From NCBI GenBank assembly GCA_964490105.1, contig CAZAZU010000001.1, positions 498,361-562,360 on the forward strand: a stretch of DNA of 64,000 nucleotides, read 5' to 3'. Each line of letters opens with the position of its first letter. The stretch's first letter is position 1. The position numbers and the translations under genes are program-made. The notes below the pieces were generated by a model. It did not search any database, was not told the origin of the DNA, and saw nothing but the letters and a program-made list of their open reading frames with translations. The DNA is from an uncultured Gammaproteobacteria bacterium. Its GTDB lineage: Bacteria > Patescibacteriota > Microgenomatia > Levybacterales > UBA12049. Of the stretch, positions 12,499 through 23,302 are shown piece by piece.

Positions 12499-13280
12499 GC
12501 TTACGTAGGATTTATGCTATGAATAAAAGGTATTTTTATACCCTAGTTCATAGTTACGACAGATTATCTGACATGTTTTATTGGCCAATTATGGACATCC
12601 TTATCTGGGGATTAACCGGAATTTATTTCGCAAAACTTAGCACCAATCCAGAAGAAACCACTACAGTTCTATTAACTGGATTAATATTTTGGATAATTAC
12701 CTGGAGAACCCAATATGAAGTAACGGTAAATTTACTTACAGAAATGTGGGATAAAAATTTAGTAAATCTTTTTTCTTCCCCTCTTAAAATGTCTGAATGG
12801 ATCTCCTCAGTAATGATCTATGGGGGAATAAAAATGCTGGCAAGCCTTATATTTTCTGCATCAATTGCCTTCCTTCTTTATAGTTATGATTTCTTTCAAT
12901 TTGGCTGGTGGATAATTCCATTCGCAATTAATCTTTGTATAACAGGATGGGCGATTGGATTTACCGTAGCATCTTTAATTATTAGGTACGGACAAAAGGT
13001 TCAAACTATGGCGTGGACTGGCGCATATATCATAGTTCCTTTTTCAGCTATCTATTATCCAGCAGCTATTCTTCCAGACTGGGCAATCAAAGTTTCTAAG
13101 ATAATTCCGGCTAGTTATGTTTTTGAAGCGATGAGGGAACATATTAAATCTGGAAATGTAAGCCTAGACAAACTGGCGATAAGCTTTGCATTAAGCATTA
13201 CTTATTTGCTATTATCAATCATGCTGTTTACTTGGGCATTTAGAAAAAGTAAACAAAAAGGACTTGGAAGATTAATTTAA
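12495..13280 (+). CDS. ABC-2 family transporter permease
   Basis: Translationally coupled to the ATPase with a 4-bp overlap. Six hydrophobic segments. Confidence 0.7.
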   Translation: MSLRRIYAMNKRYFYTLVHSYDRLSDMFYWPIMDILIWGLTGIYFAKLSTNPEETTTVLLTGLIFWIITWRTQYEVTVNLLTEMWDKNLVNLFSSPLKMSEWISSVMIYGGIKMLASLIFSASIAFLLYSYDFFQFGWWIIPFAINLCITGWAIGFTVASLIIRYGQKVQTMAWTGAYIIVPFSAIYYPAAILPDWAIKVSKIIPASYVFEAMREHIKSGNVSLDKLAISFALSITYLLLSIMLFTWAFRKSKQKGLGRLI

Positions 13281-13729
13281 TGGATAAAGCAAAACTACAA
13301 CAAGAATTAATTGCAGCAATGAAAGCGCAAGATGAGACCAAAAAGTCTACTGTTCGCATGCTTATTTCCTCTATCAACTACTATCAAATCGAAAAAGGCG
13401 GAGCAGGATATGAGGCAACTCCTGAAGATGTTTTAGCAGTTATCGAAAAAGAAGCTAAAAAAAGACGCGATTCAATCTCAGAGTATCAAAAAGCTGGAAG
13501 ACAAGATTTGGCTGATAAAGAAACCGAAGAGTTAAAGATTCTAGAAGCCTATCTTCCTGAAAAAATGTCAGAAGCAGAAGTTACTAAAATAGTTGAGGAA
13601 ACAATTTCAGAAACTGGCGCTTCGTCAATGGCCGACATGGGAAAACTTATGGGAGCTTTAAATGGAAAACTTAAAGGAAAAGCAGATATGGGAATGGTCT
13701 CAAACTTAGTTCGCTCAAAACTTTCCTAA
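13280..13729 (+). CDS. GatB/YqeY domain protein
   Basis: 149-aa acidic helical protein 'KAKLQQELIAAMKAQDETKKSTVRMLISSINYYQIEKGG...' typical of the YqeY family. Confidence 0.75.
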   Translation: MDKAKLQQELIAAMKAQDETKKSTVRMLISSINYYQIEKGGAGYEATPEDVLAVIEKEAKKRRDSISEYQKAGRQDLADKETEELKILEAYLPEKMSEAEVTKIVEETISETGASSMADMGKLMGALNGKLKGKADMGMVSNLVRSKLS

Positions 13730-14635
13730 TTATTCTTTCTTCGCTCTCTTAAGACTCCACTCGTGCCAGACTACAAGAATTGGTGTGGCATTAAATATAG
13801 AGGAATAAGTTCCTGAAATCATTCCGATTATTAGAGCGACCACAAACCAGCGAATACTTTCTCCCCCAAATAAAAGTAATGCGAAAAGAACTAATAGAAC
13901 AGTGATTGAATTATTTAAAGATCTTCCAATTGTTTGAACTATAGAATCATTTGCAACTTTAGCAAAATTCCCTCCCCCATTTTTTTCAAGATTTTCACGC
14001 ATTCTATCAAACACGACAATCGTATCGTGAACGGAAAATCCGATTACCGTAAGAAGCGCTGTAACAAAAAGACTATCAATTTCTACATTTAAGAAATGCC
14101 CTAGGATAGAGAATATTCCGACAACAACTAAAACATCATGCACTAAAGCTACAATTGCTGATATTCCAAAACGGATTGAACTAGCAGGCTTTGGAACTTT
14201 CCTGAAAACTAGAGATATATAAACAACAACAAGAAGAGATGCTACCACCACCGCTTTTAATGCATTTATGGTCGTTTCTTTTCCAATAGTTGGCCCGATC
14301 GTCGAAAACTCCTGCTGCTTTGCATTTTTATATTCTGCCGAAAGATCCTTTACGAATTCGTTGTTCTTTTTTTGATCAATCTCCTCGGTTCTAATAATTG
14401 CTAATTTATTTGAAGTTTCAATTACAGAAACTTTTATATCCTTTTCTTCAAGTGTTTTTCTTAAGAAATCTTTCTGCTCACCTGTAACCTCAGTTGGAAA
14501 TAAGACAGACATCCTAGATCCGCCTGTAAATTCAATTGATAGATTCAATCCATAAAGAACAAGAGAAACTAAACCTGGGACCATTACCAGAAGTGAAATT
14601 GCAAACCATATTTTTTTTCTGCCGATTATATTCAT
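13730..14635 (-). CDS. secF: protein translocase subunit SecF
   Basis: N-terminal 'KKIWFAISLLVMVPGLVSLVLYGLNLSIEFTGGS' and a C-terminal 6-TM RND-like domain. It lies immediately downstream of secD. Confidence 0.85.
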   Translation of the reverse strand: MNIIGRKKIWFAISLLVMVPGLVSLVLYGLNLSIEFTGGSRMSVLFPTEVTGEQKDFLRKTLEEKDIKVSVIETSNKLAIIRTEEIDQKKNNEFVKDLSAEYKNAKQQEFSTIGPTIGKETTINALKAVVVASLLVVVYISLVFRKVPKPASSIRFGISAIVALVHDVLVVVGIFSILGHFLNVEIDSLFVTALLTVIGFSVHDTIVVFDRMRENLEKNGGGNFAKVANDSIVQTIGRSLNNSITVLLVLFALLLFGGESIRWFVVALIIGMISGTYSSIFNATPILVVWHEWSLKRAKKE

Positions 14636-18842: not shown

Positions 18843-18870
18843 AAAATCCCCGAAAGGGGATTTTTCTTTT
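18843..18870. terminator. bidirectional intrinsic terminator between convergent genes
   Basis: Hairpin 'aaaaatcccc-gaaa-ggggattttt' is flanked by an A-run and 'tttttctttt'. It can serve the plus-strand small ORF and minus-strand argG. Confidence 0.6.
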
Positions 18871-20134
18871 ATTTAGAAACTGAATTATTTTTTCTATTTA
18901 CTTCGTTTGCTACTTTCATTTGGAACGAATATATTTCAATAAAACCAGCACTCGCATTAATATTAAAATTATACCCTCCATTCTTGTTAAACGATGCATG
19001 CATAAGCCCGTTTGGAGAATCCAATGCAACTACAGAAACGCTTCCTCTATAAAGCTTAACCGTAACTTCTCCGCTTACCTTTTCATTAATTAAATCATTA
19101 AACGCATTAATTGCATCCATGACAGGGTCAAACCAAAGAGCTCCATAGCAGAAATATCCCCATTTTATATCCATCTCTGCCTTAACAGCGTTTAAATTTC
19201 TCGTTGAAACGTATTTCTCTAAAGCCTTATGCGCTTCAATTATTACATGTGCACCGGGCTGCTCATATACGCCGCCATTCTTAATACCTACCAACCTATC
19301 CTCTACCAAGTGTGCAACTCCCACCCCATGCTGTCCAGCTGTTTTATTAAGAGCTACAATAATCTTTGCTAGGGTGAGTTTTTTTCCATTAAGTAGAACT
19401 GGTATTCCTTTTTTAAAAGTAATCTTAATTAATTCCTCATCTTTTATAGAATTTTTGGCAAGAGTATAAGTAGTAAGAAATTTTTCAAGAGGAGCAATAA
19501 GATTTGGCTCTTCTATTTCTCCGCCTTCCCATGTCATTCCCCACATATTGTCATCATCGCTATATGGTGAATCGATAGTGGCTGGAACCGGAATTTTATT
19601 TTTTTTAGCATATAAAATTTCTTCATTTCGATCCATATCCCACTCCCTAACAGGAGCGATTATTTTAATGTCTGGATCATGTGCCAAAATATAAGATTCA
19701 AAACGCACTTGATCATTTCCTTTTCCCGTACATCCATGAGCAATAACTCTTATCCCAAGCTTTTTAGCGACTTCAACTGCTTTTTTTGCACAAATTGCCC
19801 TGCCCATTGGAGTTGATAAGTGATAATCCCCTTGATAACTTGCGTTCGCTTTTATACCTTTTGCAAGATATTCATTTGCAAACTCTTCTTTAATATCCAA
19901 AGTTATTGCCTCTTTAGCTCCTAGACTAATTGCTTTCTTTTTTATTGATTCCAAGTCATCTTTCTGCTGACCTAAATCCAAGGTAAGCGCGACGATCTCT
20001 GCTTTATATTTATCTTTAATCCATTTAAGAATTACTGAAGTATCAAGTCCGCCAGAATATAAAAGTAGGACTTTTTTTGCTTTATCAGTTGCCTCATATG
20101 ATGCGACTTTTATATATTTCGTTTTTGATTTCAT
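18869..20134 (-). CDS. argG: argininosuccinate synthase
   Basis: PP-loop 'LLLYSGGLDTSVIL'. 421 aa with full-length ArgG architecture. Confidence 0.9.
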   Translation of the reverse strand: MKSKTKYIKVASYEATDKAKKVLLLYSGGLDTSVILKWIKDKYKAEIVALTLDLGQQKDDLESIKKKAISLGAKEAITLDIKEEFANEYLAKGIKANASYQGDYHLSTPMGRAICAKKAVEVAKKLGIRVIAHGCTGKGNDQVRFESYILAHDPDIKIIAPVREWDMDRNEEILYAKKNKIPVPATIDSPYSDDDNMWGMTWEGGEIEEPNLIAPLEKFLTTYTLAKNSIKDEELIKITFKKGIPVLLNGKKLTLAKIIVALNKTAGQHGVGVAHLVEDRLVGIKNGGVYEQPGAHVIIEAHKALEKYVSTRNLNAVKAEMDIKWGYFCYGALWFDPVMDAINAFNDLINEKVSGEVTVKLYRGSVSVVALDSPNGLMHASFNKNGGYNFNINASAGFIEIYSFQMKVANEVNRKNNSVSK

Positions 20135-21339
20135 TTTTTAACACCTCCTCTCTCGTACTCTTTTCCAATTTTTTTGTACGCTTCCCTAAAGCTCTCACCT
20201 TTAATCACCAAGTTCAAAGCTTTTTCAGTTGCGTATAATTCCTGTGTCATGGAATTTTTCAAAACATTTTCATTTGGAACTATATTTTGTAGTAAGATTT
20301 GACTAATGACAATTGATTCCAGTGTTAGCTCCAAACTTTCCATTAATGGTTTTTTTGTGTCCTGAAAATCCCTGTTGTAACCTGTTACCAAGTTTGAAGA
20401 TATGCTTATAATCTGAGTATAATTTCCTAAAACCACATTAACCTTGCTTCGCAATAACTCTGCGATATCTAAATTTACTTTCTGAGGCATAATACTGCTT
20501 CCCGTAGTTATTTTTTTGTTTATCTGAAAATAATTAAATTCAGATGTAGTGAAAAGCATTAAGTCTGATGCAAATTTATTAATAGTTTGTAAAACAGAAA
20601 TTAAAAAAGCTAATGTTAACGCATCAATTTTAGTCCTTGAGCTTTGTGCATAAATCGGATTATTTAAAACTTTACCAAAACCTAAAATCTTAGAGCTATA
20701 TATTTTATCAACCTTAATTGGAAGTCCGTAACCTGCACCAGAACCTAAAGGAGACTGATCGTTTAAATCGTAAATTACTTTTAAAACCTTAATGTCATCA
20801 TTTAGTGCGTCTTTAAAACCGCCTGCCCAAAGACCAATGCTTGAGGGCATCGCTTTTTGCATATGTGTATAACCAGGCATTGGAACATCTCCATAAAGAG
20901 ATTCAAACTTTTCAAACAAATTACTTAATGAAATAATCTCTTTTTCAATTTTCTCTAAGTAATCTTTTGTAAAAAGTCTTAATGCTGTTAAAACCTGGTC
21001 ATTCCTACTTCGAGCTGTATGAATTTTTTTACCCACACTCCCATACCTCTGGGTCAAATATTTTTCGATTTTTGTATGACAATCCTCATCTCCAAATTTT
21101 AGGATAAACCCACCATTTTCATAAAGTTTTTTTATTTCTTCCAAGCCTTTTTCAATAAATAACAGCTCCTGTTTAGTTAAAATGTTTATTTTGTGAAGCA
21201 TTTTTGCGTGGGCAATCGAGCCGTTCAAATCATAAGGAATTAGTTTTTGATCCAAAAGAAGATCTCCCTTTGTTTCAAAGGCCTCTACCAGAGAATTCAG
21301 CTCCCAATTTTTCTGCCAAAGTTTATTATTTTTTTTCAT
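20131..21339 (-). CDS. argH: argininosuccinate lyase
   Basis: 'HTARSRNDQVLTALRLF' and fumarate-lyase signature 'GSSIMPQKVNLDIAE'. 4-bp overlap with argG. Confidence 0.85.
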   Translation of the reverse strand: MKKNNKLWQKNWELNSLVEAFETKGDLLLDQKLIPYDLNGSIAHAKMLHKINILTKQELLFIEKGLEEIKKLYENGGFILKFGDEDCHTKIEKYLTQRYGSVGKKIHTARSRNDQVLTALRLFTKDYLEKIEKEIISLSNLFEKFESLYGDVPMPGYTHMQKAMPSSIGLWAGGFKDALNDDIKVLKVIYDLNDQSPLGSGAGYGLPIKVDKIYSSKILGFGKVLNNPIYAQSSRTKIDALTLAFLISVLQTINKFASDLMLFTTSEFNYFQINKKITTGSSIMPQKVNLDIAELLRSKVNVVLGNYTQIISISSNLVTGYNRDFQDTKKPLMESLELTLESIVISQILLQNIVPNENVLKNSMTQELYATEKALNLVIKGESFREAYKKIGKEYERGGVKK

Positions 21340-21576
21340 AAAAAAATCCCGTCTTCATTCACAATTTAATTTGTGAACAAGGACGGGAATTCCCGTGGTG
21401 CCACCTTCATTCGTTATCTAAAAGATAACCTTATTTCAGCGCTCCGTTACCGACACGCTTTGCTAATTTTACGGTTTGCTTCCGTCGCGGTAAAGCATTT
21501 TTTGCCTTCACATCCACGCAGCTCGTTTATTGCTATAAACTCAAACGCTATTTATTTAACTTAATATATTATATCA
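21340..21576 (-). promoter_or_regulatory. T-box-like riboswitch leader (extended -10 promoter, Stem III-like hairpin, antiterminator, terminator) upstream of argH-argG
   Basis: On the minus strand:
- Extended -10 TGATATAAT (rc of 21568-21576).
- About 220-nt leader.
- Stem III-like hairpin GUUAUCU-UUU-AGAUAAC.
- Antiterminator AAGG-UGGCACC-ACGGGAAUUCCCGU-CCUU (rc of 21378-21407), a 14/16 match to AGGGUGGNACCGCGGG.
- Overlapping terminator CCCGUC..GACGGG + U7 (21340-21387) abutting the argH ATG. Confidence 0.5.
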
Positions 21577-21709
21577 CCTTGAGTCAAATTATTCACAACA
21601 GGGGTCTTTATAACCGCAGTTGGGACAATAAGCGTCGCGTGAGCCCGGCATATCTCCCATCTCTTCTTTACAAACTGGGCAATCTTGAGTTCTTAAATCT
21701 GGTCTTGGT

Positions 21710-23302
21710 CTATTCTTCACCTTGGTAGTGGATTAATTTATATACTTTTAATACTGACACGTCCCACTGACCTGCGATTTCTGCTCTTCCAAATCCTGCT
21801 ATTTCCTGACGGGATTCTCCGAGAGGATAACATGGATTAGTTTCGCAGACGACAAATAATTGATCAGTGACACTTTTTCTTTCCGGGTCCTGATCGATCC
21901 CTAAAATCGTCACAGGCTCTCTGCCATCAAGCTTAAAGAAATATCTATATGCATGATCTGAATTTCCAATTCCGCTTATTGAAAAATTATATGGCCTTCC
22001 TTCTGATTTAGAAATTACAAAATCTGAAATTCCTTTTACTTGATTTACTTGATTATTTCCGGGAACAGCGATTGGATTAAACTTAAGATTTACTAGAAAC
22101 AAACATATTAGAATTGCAGCAACAATTACTTTCCCTGGTTTTTTAAGAATAATAATTATTTCTGATAATAAAAGCCCTACTAATAAAAATGGCACCGGGA
22201 AAATAAAACCTAAATAGTAGTCATAGATGGATTTTTTATATAATCCGAAAAGTCCAATTCCCAGTAACGCCCAGATAAAAATTAATAAGAATTTTTTAAG
22301 TTCTATACTTTCAGTTCTGGATTTAATTAATAAAATCAAAAAGAAAATAATCGAAACTAATCCTAAGAACGCTGATACGACTAACCAAATTTGCAAAATG
22401 TTTGGATCAAATTTGTGGAACTTAGAAAAGTCAGGATAAGATAAAACTAATCCCCCAAAAAGCCTAATGAAAACATGCTGAACATTAACTAAAAACTGTC
22501 CTGATGCGCCAGTTTCAGGTGAGTTAAAAATAAACTCCAAGATGTTTTTTGAGTTTGTAAATTGATGTCTTATTTCAAACAATAAAAATGGAGAAAATCC
22601 AATTAAAAATCCTGCTAATAAACTTAGATATCTTTTAGCTAATGTTTTAAGATATGAAATCTTTAACTCAAATCCTGCGACCAATGTATAGAAAAATACG
22701 ATAGCTCCAACAAATGTTGCAAGATAATGAATTTGAAGATTTAGTCCCATTAGAAAACCAGCGAGAATAAAAAGAGAAATTTTATTTTTTACAACAGCTT
22801 TATATAAAACGTAAAGAGTAGAAATTGTAAAAAATGGAAATACATTAGGATTCCAGGAAGAACGTGAATAGGTAACTACAATCGGGGAAATCGCATATAA
22901 AAATGCAGCAATCACTCCGGCGAGCGGATTAAAAAATTCTCGGCCAATTTTATAAACTAAGAAAATTGTGGCAACTCCAAAAAGAATTACCATTATTGCG
23001 GGGCCTATCGGATCATAGCGCGAAAGGAACATAAAAGGAGTCATAAGATAGTAATAAATGGGACCCAAGAAAAATCCGCCCACTGAAGAAGTTGGACCCA
23101 GAAGAGTAAGATCCCCATGCAGAATATTATAAACAACTAATGCGTCTCTGCCTTCATCTCCCAGAAAAACTATATAGTCTCTGACTCGATAAAATCGCAG
23201 GAAAAATCCTAAAAGTAAAATAATAAAAATTGGGAACCACTCTGGTTTTAACCCAACTTTTTTTGGAGTTTTGAAAGAGAAGCGATGTGCCATCTTTTCC
23301 AT
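21710..23302 (-). CDS. GT-C fold membrane glycosyltransferase, ArnT/PMT (GT39/GT83)-like
   Basis: About 12 TM segments. N-terminal 'FLRFYRVRDYIVFLGDEGRDALVVYNI' has a DE-type motif in the first periplasmic loop, as in ArnT/PMT_2. The called start overlaps the upstream GT2 gene by 55 nt, so the real start may be internal. Confidence 0.65.
   Translation of the reverse strand: MEKMAHRFSFKTPKKVGLKPEWFPIFIILLLGFFLRFYRVRDYIVFLGDEGRDALVVYNILHGDLTLLGPTSSVGGFFLGPIYYYLMTPFMFLSRYDPIGPAIMVILFGVATIFLVYKIGREFFNPLAGVIAAFLYAISPIVVTYSRSSWNPNVFPFFTISTLYVLYKAVVKNKISLFILAGFLMGLNLQIHYLATFVGAIVFFYTLVAGFELKISYLKTLAKRYLSLLAGFLIGFSPFLLFEIRHQFTNSKNILEFIFNSPETGASGQFLVNVQHVFIRLFGGLVLSYPDFSKFHKFDPNILQIWLVVSAFLGLVSIIFFLILLIKSRTESIELKKFLLIFIWALLGIGLFGLYKKSIYDYYLGFIFPVPFLLVGLLLSEIIIILKKPGKVIVAAILICLFLVNLKFNPIAVPGNNQVNQVKGISDFVISKSEGRPYNFSISGIGNSDHAYRYFFKLDGREPVTILGIDQDPERKSVTDQLFVVCETNPCYPLGESRQEIAGFGRAEIAGQWDVSVLKVYKLIHYQGEE

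Follow-up and report, generated by a model that had tools for sequence, protein, structure and literature searches.

A probable T-box riboswitch with an ultrashort Stem I upstream of argH-argG in a Microgenomates genome

Introduction

Which signal controls the arginine biosynthesis genes argH and argG in a member of the Candidate Phyla Radiation (CPR)? The question is raised by a 370-bp gap in front of argH on the minus strand of contig CAZAZU010000001.1, of which a stretch of 64,000 nucleotides (hereafter, the window) was analysed. An initial annotation, made from the letters of the sequence, had proposed a T-box-like leader controlling argH-argG. The proposal is supported by a match to the Rfam T-box family, by the conservation of the leader among relatives, by the covariation of its helices and by the mutually exclusive folds of a terminator and an antiterminator, all of which were observed here. 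Based on these features, the leader of approximately 230 bases preceding argH-argG is very probably a T-box riboswitch that controls the two genes by transcription attenuation.

To our knowledge, almost nothing is known about gene regulation in CPR/Patescibacteria. Arginine metabolism has been described as central to their lifestyle (PMC11665869). An older survey described T-boxes for Firmicutes, Actinobacteria, Chloroflexi, Deinococcus-Thermus and two Deltaproteobacteria (PMC2494555). The initial annotation knew of no T-boxes described for CPR-like lineages, consistent with our literature search, which yielded no report of T-boxes from CPR, Patescibacteria or Microgenomates, a result that constitutes absence of evidence only.

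Identification and alternative folds of the leader

When searched in E-value mode, the Rfam T-box family RF00230 matched positions 21376–21539 of the minus strand with 45.3 bits, corresponding to E-values of 7e-9 for the 501-nt region and 9.2e-7 for the whole window. It was the sole non-tRNA Rfam family with E < 0.01 in the window. The match to the family suggested in the initial annotation was thus significant, but its score remained below the gathering cut-off of 93 bits; at gathering thresholds, Rfam found no T-box in the window and reported only a tRNA-Gln. In the alignment (cmscan), Stem II, Stem IIA/B, Stem III and the antiterminator were well placed, the antiterminator being the best-aligned part, while 85 Stem I consensus positions were deleted and approximately 24 nt between IIA/B and Stem III were handled as an insertion. 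The low score can be attributed to the ultrashort Stem I. The leader (256 nt) folded 3.9 standard deviations better than its shuffles, with the terminator included in the minimum free energy (MFE) structure.

The sequence features listed in the initial annotation were all present on the minus strand where it had placed them. Among these, the antiterminator AAGG[UGGCACC]ACGGG-AAUU-CCCGUCCUU (21407–21379) aligned to RF00230 with a posterior probability near 1 and folded as predicted (−8.5 kcal/mol), with helix A1 (AAGG/CCUU), the 7-nt T-box bulge UGGCACC (21403–21397) and helix A2 (ACGGG/CCCGU); pairs of both A1 and A2 covary. A direct count agreed that the T-box consensus AGGGUGGNACCGCGGG is matched at 14 of 16 positions. 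The UGGC of the bulge (21403–21400) would be able to pair with a tRNA 3' end GCCA.

The intrinsic terminator (21388–21340, minus strand) consists of a long hairpin (21388–21347) followed by a run of seven uridines (U7; 21346–21340). It folds at −24.8 kcal/mol (z = −4.6) and lies within the MFE structure. Sequence and folds confirmed that the 3' half of the antiterminator doubles as the 5' arm of this hairpin, whose U7 abuts the argH ATG: the strand CCCGUCCUU (21387–21379) is used by both structures. The terminator is therefore in competition for a shared strand with an antiterminator of much lower stability (−24.8 vs. −8.5 kcal/mol).

Conservation and covariation among relatives

The leader was compared with 80 argH loci from species-representative genomes, 80 from metagenomes, and the closest relatives obtained by exact protein look-up. 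A regular expression detected the GGUGGNACC motif 45–150 nt 5' of argH in 58 of 161 loci, belonging to Levy-, Gottesman-, Woese- and Roizmanbacteria, other Microgenomates, one Saccharimonadales genome and Ktedonobacterales (Chloroflexi). The motif was absent from the argH loci of DPANN archaea, Peregrinibacteria and Marinimicrobia. Two groups of leaders were distinguished. Group A, which includes the window, starts with GCGUUUGA and has a tiny hairpin in place of Stem I. In group B, Stem I is long or of intermediate length and has a specifier bulge of the classical type, in which AGA, AGG or CGA followed by G stands directly 5' of the helix leading to the kink-turn (K-turn), as in GAA-CGA-G-CUCUC of L013. 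Fifteen related leaders scored 34–98 bits against RF00230, with L012 alone reaching the gathering score.

A covariance model (R1) built from the MAFFT alignment of 13 group-A leaders gave 78 matches in 166 argH loci, mostly from Microgenomates (E-values of 1e-2 to 4e-69), and exactly one match in the window, which was the leader (168.9 bits). Projection of the window helices onto the unfitted MAFFT alignment of the 13 leaders showed that 95.3% of the cells were paired and that double changes had occurred in 14 of 36 pairs. None of 500 shuffles reached these values, and sliding the 3' partners by 1–3 columns reduced the paired fraction to 28–49%. Among 47 model-aligned leaders, 98.3% of the cells were paired and 27 of 33 pairs had double changes; since this alignment was fitted to the model, it is biased towards structure, and the unfitted 13-leader result is the cleaner control. 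Overall, eight helices, including a pseudoknot, were conserved with compensatory changes across dozens of genomes.

Several loci showed arrangements of their own. L164 and L165 (both at 520–700; ArgH 67% identical) had no T-box, and shared mutually similar leaders of about 150 nt ending in GCAACCGCC-GAAGG-GCGGUUUUUUU, which may represent another attenuator of the same operon. An extra small gene stood between the T-box leader and argH in three loci, encoding a GNAT-like protein in L116 (402–806) and an unknown protein of 146–150 aa in L004 (954–1406) and L134 (394–834). In L161 (730–839), the Stem I hairpin GGGGUUCGAAUCCU looks exactly like the tRNA T-arm GGUUCGAAUCC, with CGA-A at the specifier position and the remaining leader much reduced.

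Promoter and structure of the tRNA-binding region

The extended −10 element noted about 220 nt before the argH ATG was found 229 nt upstream of it, as TGATATAAT (TGnTATAAT; 21576–21568, minus strand). Read from the sequence, it is a predicted promoter with a transcription start at approximately 21561, 10–12 nt 5' of Stem I. L162, L163 and L168 have comparable TGnTATAAT or TATAAT elements 20–23 nt ahead of the first base of Stem I. A TTGACT at 21587–21582 is not usable as a −35 element, because only 8 nt separate it from the −10. A simple scan for −35/−10 promoters and terminators reported neither element, which is uninformative given that the −10 stands without a −35 and that the bulges and loop of the terminator stem exceed the rules of the scan.

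Stem I, which the initial annotation could not confidently fold, became readable once relatives were aligned, and a Stem I with both a K-turn and a specifier loop was thereby identified. It is ultrashort (30 nt; 21549–21520), and its assignment is based on the match to the RF00230 K-turn consensus and on covariation. The predicted K-turn comprises a C-stem (AGC 21549–21547 with GCU 21522–21520), the bulge GUU, and tandem G.A pairs formed by UGA (21543–21541) and GA (21524–21523); its strands AGC-GUU-UGA...GA-GCU fit the RF00230 consensus GCgaUGA...GAGC (GA motif). The C-stem covaries, its first pair being AU, GC, UA or GU among relatives. Above it, a 6-bp hairpin (GUUUAU/AUAAAC, 21540–21525) exposes the apical loop AGCA (21534–21531), which holds the specifier position (AGC followed by the purine A). 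The hairpin covaries at two positions (CG/UA) in the 13-sequence alignment and at all 6 pairs in the 47-sequence alignment. A distal Stem I platform (IDTM), in which an AG bulge and a distal loop stack on the tRNA elbow, was absent from the window and from all 47 group-A leaders.

Stem II (21518–21486; −10.5 kcal/mol, z = −2.1) was located through the RF00230 alignment and consists of a lower helix (CGUGG/CCGCG), a purine-rich internal loop (AUGUGA) and an upper helix (AGGCA/UGCUU). All five pairs of the lower helix were kept, with compensatory changes at three of the five positions in the 13 sequences and at all five in the 47. The internal loop is AUGUGA/UA in the window vs. a GAGAAA/AAUAA purine loop in relatives. 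Stem II is followed by the Stem IIA hairpin ACGG-AAGCAAA-CCGU with the IIB pseudoknot (together 21485–21462), aligned to IIA/B of RF00230 (F-box CCGU.A). Stem IIA spans 21485–21471, and its loop (21479–21477) pairs with 21464–21462 to form the pseudoknot. A G-C pair of Stem IIA is replaced by A-U in 12 of the 47 sequences, and compensatory changes were observed at all three pseudoknot pairs.

Between IIA/B and Stem III lies an additional conserved hairpin, AGCGUGUCGG-UAA-CGGAGCGCU (21459–21438; −9.9 kcal/mol, z = −2.6), which is outside the canonical T-box consensus. An outer Watson-Crick helix is followed by an invariant U.G/G.A/U.G stack and a CG/CG helix capped by a GNRA loop. Covariation (CG/UA/AU/GC) was seen in the outer helix, 41–45 of 47 sequences keep the U.G pairs unchanged, and among relatives longer stems can take the place of the GNRA loop. 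The hairpin is confined to platform-less leaders and is retained even in the minimal leader of L017, which has no Stem II, IIA/B or Stem III. We speculate that it compensates for the missing platform.

Stem III, GGUUAUCU-UUU-AGAUAACC with flanking purines (21429–21413; −5.7 kcal/mol, z = −3.5), aligned to RF00230 with high posterior probability; the Stem III-like hairpin GUUAUCU-UUU-AGAUAAC that had been recognised earlier occupies 21428–21414. In many related leaders (L162 at 560–640, L043 at 1370–1420, L089, L091, L007, L008, L166 and L169), Stem III encloses a GC-rich hairpin followed by U6–U7, for example UCCACC-GAAA-GGUGGA-UUUUUU. This nested element, absent in the window and L163, is terminator- or pause-like and located 5' of the T-box sequence, and might act as a programmed pause giving time for tRNA binding.

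Specifier and sensed tRNA

The earlier suggestion of an arginine specifier A-CGU-A did not hold, as no ACGUA occurs in the leader and the sole CGU before an A is found in C-CGU-A (21473–21470). This CGU (21473–21471) was rejected as a specifier: it is base-paired as part of the 3' strand of Stem IIA, where it covaries with the opposite strand. In L059, L100 and L166, CUGU replaces CGU and is compensated for by ACAG on the other strand, which marks a paired position rather than a codon.

In the window, the specifier position of the Stem I apical loop reads AGC-A (loop U-AGC-A-A, closed by A-U). CGC (Arg) stands at this position in approximately 40 of the 47 group-A relatives, while other relatives have CGA, AGA or AGG. 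The group-A loops occur as a pentaloop U-CGC-G closed by G.A, G.U or G-C, as Y-CGC-A-R, in which the outer Y-R covaries as C-G or U-A, and in a few cases as U-CGA-R. In relatives whose Stem I is long or of intermediate length, the canonical specifier bulge contains GAA-(G)AGA/AGG/CGA-G. The AGCA leaders are those of the window and its three closest relatives, L162, L163/L174 and L168 (ArgH 71–75% identical). Since the same leader is also found in an independent Logan assembly (L001) as well as in these relatives, AGC is not an assembly error. The stem under the AGCA loop covaries (GUUUAU/AUAAAC, GUCUAC/GUAGAC, GUUUAC/GUAAAC), and the bulge UGGC is common to all four AGCA leaders.

Several observations weigh against an arginine-responsive T-box acting on transcription. 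The RF00230 score is less than half of the gathering score (45.3 vs. 93 bits). The specifier AGC of the window, L162, L163 and L168 is a serine codon, which pairs fully with tRNA-Ser(GCU) but with any tRNA-Arg at two of three positions only. No genomic tRNA-Arg was available in the window or its flanks for comparison with the UGGC bulge (a G73 match): tRNA-Gln was the only tRNA gene in the window, and neither tRNA-Arg nor tRNA-Ser was found within 10 kb beyond either window edge (L171, L172) or in the 21 kb around argH of L174. No obvious AGUA/GAA S-turn can be recognised in the Stem II internal loop of the window. Furthermore, a 2020 review holds that rapid capture of tRNA by transcriptional T-boxes generally depends on the platform of a long Stem I (PMC7583486), and this platform is absent from the window leader.

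The specifier in particular raises the possibility that the same attenuator responds to tRNA-Ser(GCU) in the AGCA clade, a single C-to-A change (CGC to AGC) having retargeted argH-argG to serine starvation. AGC is fully complementary to the anticodon GCU, and the UGGC of all four AGCA leaders fits G73, the typical discriminator base of bacterial tRNA-Ser. The retention of AGCA in four lineages while the stem beneath it covaries indicates that the A of AGC is selected rather than an error, and the internal loop of Stem II was remodelled in the same clade. AGC is also a used serine specifier in the T-box database TBDB, and T-boxes strongly prefer three Watson-Crick pairs (PMC7778990). However, serine control of argininosuccinate synthase and lyase would have no physiological logic, and the AGCA leader of L174 heads argH-argG-GNAT-argF, all of them arginine-pathway genes. 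Every other family member carries an arginine codon, AGC is one step away both from CGC and from AGA/AGG, AGA makes up 63% of the arginine codons in the window, and UGGC also occurs in 16 of 41 non-AGCA leaders with a readable bulge. Rewiring to serine is thus considered unlikely, though it is the most probable of the alternatives.

The sensed tRNA is more probably tRNA-Arg, because approximately 40 of the 47 relatives carry CGC, other relatives carry CGA, AGA or AGG, and the operon of the nearest relative includes argF. This assignment is made with moderate confidence from sequence comparison, and we infer both which isoacceptor is read and how one codon position pairs. Among the arginine specifiers in TBDB, CGC is the commonest (52%), and AGA accounts for 24% (PMC7778990). 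The AGC of the window could be an AGR-family specifier with an imposed third-position C, given that contact with the Stem II S-turn favours a C at this position on structural grounds (PMC7778990). The variable base of the UGGN bulge is C in 20 leaders and U in 25, and this variation among close relatives fits the variable discriminator of tRNA-Arg. L153 (322–396) and L154 (437–511) each have a tRNA-Arg(CCU) gene, with A73 and an encoded CCA, roughly 120 nt 5' of an argH T-box leader with a UGGU bulge; the A73 of the L153 tRNA is consistent with the UGGU of its neighbouring leader. ARAGORN detected no other tRNA-Arg or tRNA-Ser in the 167 loci.

Two further readings of the loop were rejected. 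All group-A loops could be read as an alanine codon followed by a purine (GCA/GCG), but tRNA-Ala has an invariant A73, which disagrees with the C/U mix of the UGGN bulge; in addition, the base after GCG in the pentaloops is the closing A, U or C, and the regulated genes are arginine genes. A pairing of the AGCA loop with UGCU of Stem II was set aside as incidental to the sequence of that helix.

Expression platform and proposed mechanism

The leader has a single set of Shine-Dalgarno-like purines, GACGGGA, located 8 nt from the ATG in the 3' arm of the terminator. The riboswitch might therefore be mainly translational, with the hairpin sequestering these ribosome-binding purines as in the actinobacterial Class III ileS leaders, and T-boxes with a short Stem I have indeed been reported to be mostly translational (PMC10482949, PMC7583486). 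Against this, the U7 directly following the hairpin is the signature of an intrinsic terminator. An equivalent terminator overlapping the antiterminator, defined for the relatives as a hairpin of −10 kcal/mol or lower that uses the antiterminator 3' strand and ends at a U-run, was retained in 44 of 47 group-A leaders. Some of these have a start codon 20–60 nt further downstream, which the hairpin cannot mask. A mainly translational mode is accordingly improbable, and the conserved terminator, kept also where the start codon is distant, argues for transcription attenuation as the mechanism of the family. The two modes are not mutually exclusive, and an added translational effect in the window, with GACGGGA located in the terminator arm, is possible. 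Attenuation by a leader peptide was rejected: the minus-strand ATGs of the leader yield only 'M*' and a 9-codon open reading frame (ORF) that has one arginine codon and no Shine-Dalgarno sequence.

For the transcriptional mechanism, we infer promoter use, tRNA binding, charge sensing and termination in vivo as follows. Transcription would start about 10 nt 5' of the ultrashort Stem I, the apical loop of which would offer a codon-like triplet to the tRNA anticodon. Stem II and the IIA/B pseudoknot would then dock onto the small codon-anticodon-like duplex, as in Class III T-boxes. If the tRNA is uncharged, its 3' GCCA would pair with the bulge UGGC and stabilise the weak antiterminator, so that RNA polymerase would read into argH. 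If the tRNA is charged or absent, the far more stable terminator would form and transcription would stop at U7, just before the ATG.

Gene context

The minus strand of the window (36% GC) carries, in the order of transcription, a GT2/GtrA gene, a GT-C/PMT_2 gene (23302–21710), the 370-bp gap, argH (21339–20131) and argG (20134–18869), the last two overlapping by 4 nt and together forming the presumably regulated unit (18869–21339). Their products match the Pfam families Lyase_1 and Arginosuc_synth, respectively, and both score above NCBIfam equivalog cut-offs (argH, TIGR00838, 299 vs. 279.5; argG, NF001770, 463 vs. 334), so that the genes 3' of the leader are assigned as argH and argG on this basis. 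The best homologues of the window ArgH carry the labels Daviesbacteria, Levybacteria and Microgenomates, which places the window in a CPR/Patescibacteria genome. The gap between the end of the GT-C/PMT_2 ORF (21710) and the argH ATG (21339) is GC-richer than its flanks, as had been noted (40.5% vs. 32–33% in the flanking genes).

Part of the gap can also be read as coding. A small ORF upstream of the promoter (21589–21720, minus strand), with 43 codons from a GTG start or 23 from an ATG at 21660, would encode a zinc-ribbon-like peptide (CPVC...CPNC, C-terminal CCE) without a Pfam match. It was not found 5' of the leader in L162, L163 and L153. The same leader with its own −10 precedes argH in relatives despite other upstream neighbours, namely an HAD hydrolase gene (L163/L174), a divergent gene (L162) and a tRNA gene (L153). 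Since the leader accompanies argH while the upstream neighbours differ, it is not the terminator of the upstream GT-C gene, a reading the initial annotation had itself raised as a way in which the riboswitch might fail. The view that there is no riboswitch, and that the hairpin with U7 terminates the upstream glycosyltransferase gene or small ORF with a T-box likeness due to chance or to a dead relic, can draw on the position of the hairpin downstream of the GT-C gene on the same strand and on the sub-threshold Rfam score, but is effectively refuted by the RF00230 E-value over the whole window (9e-7), the eight compensated helices with their pseudoknot in dozens of genomes, the co-occurrence of the leader with argH rather than with the upstream gene, and the visibly selected loop and bulge sequences.

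Downstream of argG, the sister genome L174 carries, at 12521–13878, genes for a GNAT acetyltransferase and ornithine carbamoyltransferase (argF). Both are missing from the window, where approximately 600 nt (18868–18257) with only short plus-strand ORFs separate argG from a DUF4446 gene. The window ArgH is short (402 aa) and its Lyase_1 domain covers residues 29–305 only. Outside Microgenomates, its closest relatives among species-representative genomes (L021, L030, L033, L034 and others) include DPANN archaea (Woesearchaeota, Micrarchaeota and Nanoarchaeota) with approximately 50% identity, a pattern that hints at gene exchange between CPR and DPANN.

Distribution and significance

The leader family extends T-boxes to the CPR and does not in itself constitute a new principle. 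Because most of its members score far below the Rfam threshold, routine annotation misses them. The combination of a platform-less Stem I with an intrinsic terminator provides a direct natural test of the platform rule (PMC7583486), and the additional conserved hairpin is a candidate for an element compensating for the missing platform. An arginine operon headed by an AGC specifier likewise provides a natural case in which to test the strictness of T-box decoding. Being compact (about 180 nt), the leader could also be put to use in Patescibacteria genetics as a native regulatory part.

Taken together, these features might make the window leader the founding example of an undescribed, CPR-wide T-box subclass that joins a Class III core to co-transcriptional terminator control. 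The additional hairpin (GUGUCGG-GNRA-CGGAGC) would be a new compensating module for docking of the tRNA or of the leader onto itself, and the selected AGC would reflect either a tolerated non-Watson-Crick codon position or serine rewiring. This joint reading is tentative, and we regard it as somewhat doubtful as a whole. If it were true, control would be kinetic and co-transcriptional without an elbow platform, the terminator-like pause hairpin inside Stem III of relatives might share the compensating role, and AGC could mean that tRNA-Arg(UCU) is read with a structurally imposed third-position C.

Comparison with known T-box classes

T-boxes are divided into four classes (PMC10482949). Classes I and II have a long Stem I with an elbow-binding platform and are generally transcriptional (PMC10482949). 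Class III has a short Stem I with the codon and a purine in a penta- or hexanucleotide apical loop and requires Stem II (PMC10482949, PMC7583486), and Class IV has an intermediate Stem I (PMC10482949). Classes III and IV are mostly translational and are exemplified by actinobacterial ileS leaders (PMC10482949), the Class III examples being ileS of Nocardia farcinica and Mycobacterium tuberculosis (Sherwood 2015; Suddala & Zhang 2019; Battaglia 2019; summarised in PMC7583486 and PMC10482949).

With Class I (RF00230; Bacillus subtilis tyrS type), the window leader shares the T-box sequence, the competition between antiterminator and terminator, Stem III, Stem II with IIA/B, and the K-turn. It also resembles this class in the control of amino-acid genes by the cognate uncharged tRNA, as predicted here, and its relatives use the usual arginine specifiers CGC and AGA. 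Unlike Class I, its Stem I has no specifier internal loop, S-turn, AG bulge or distal loop, and its specifier is AGC.

The argH T-boxes of Microgenomates and Ktedonobacterales with a canonical or intermediate Stem I (L012, L014, L112, L013, L105 and L051) have the argH-argG context, the discriminator domain and the terminator in common with the window leader, and use the arginine specifiers AGA, AGG or CGA followed by G. They differ in their Stem I, which is either long (with a GAA/AGUA S-turn and distal elements) or intermediate, in their RF00230 scores (54–98 bits) and in the absence of the additional GUGUCGG...CGGAGC hairpin.

The closest resemblance in the tRNA-binding core is to Class III. 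As in that class, the window leader has a short Stem I without a tRNA-elbow platform (IDTM), a K-turn at the base of Stem I, and a specifier followed by a 3' purine in an apical loop of 5–6 nt (U-AGC-A-A in the window, U-CGC-G or Y-CGC-A-R in relatives). Stem II, the IIA/B pseudoknot, Stem III and an antiterminator-type discriminator with a UGGN bulge follow. In contrast to Class III, its expression platform is an intrinsic terminator with a U-run rather than Shine-Dalgarno sequestration, translational control being typical of most members of the class but not a strict part of its definition, the outer loop nucleotides of group A covary as a pair and thus leave a formal tetraloop, an additional conserved hairpin stands between IIA/B and Stem III, and the Stem II internal loop of the window has no obvious AGUA/GAA S-turn. 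It further differs from the ileS leaders in the regulated pathway (arginine biosynthesis) and in its host lineage (CPR/Microgenomates vs. Actinobacteria). Judged from its sequence and predicted structure, the leader fits Class III in its tRNA-binding core, as a variant, and on a conservative view it would be a new member of that class.

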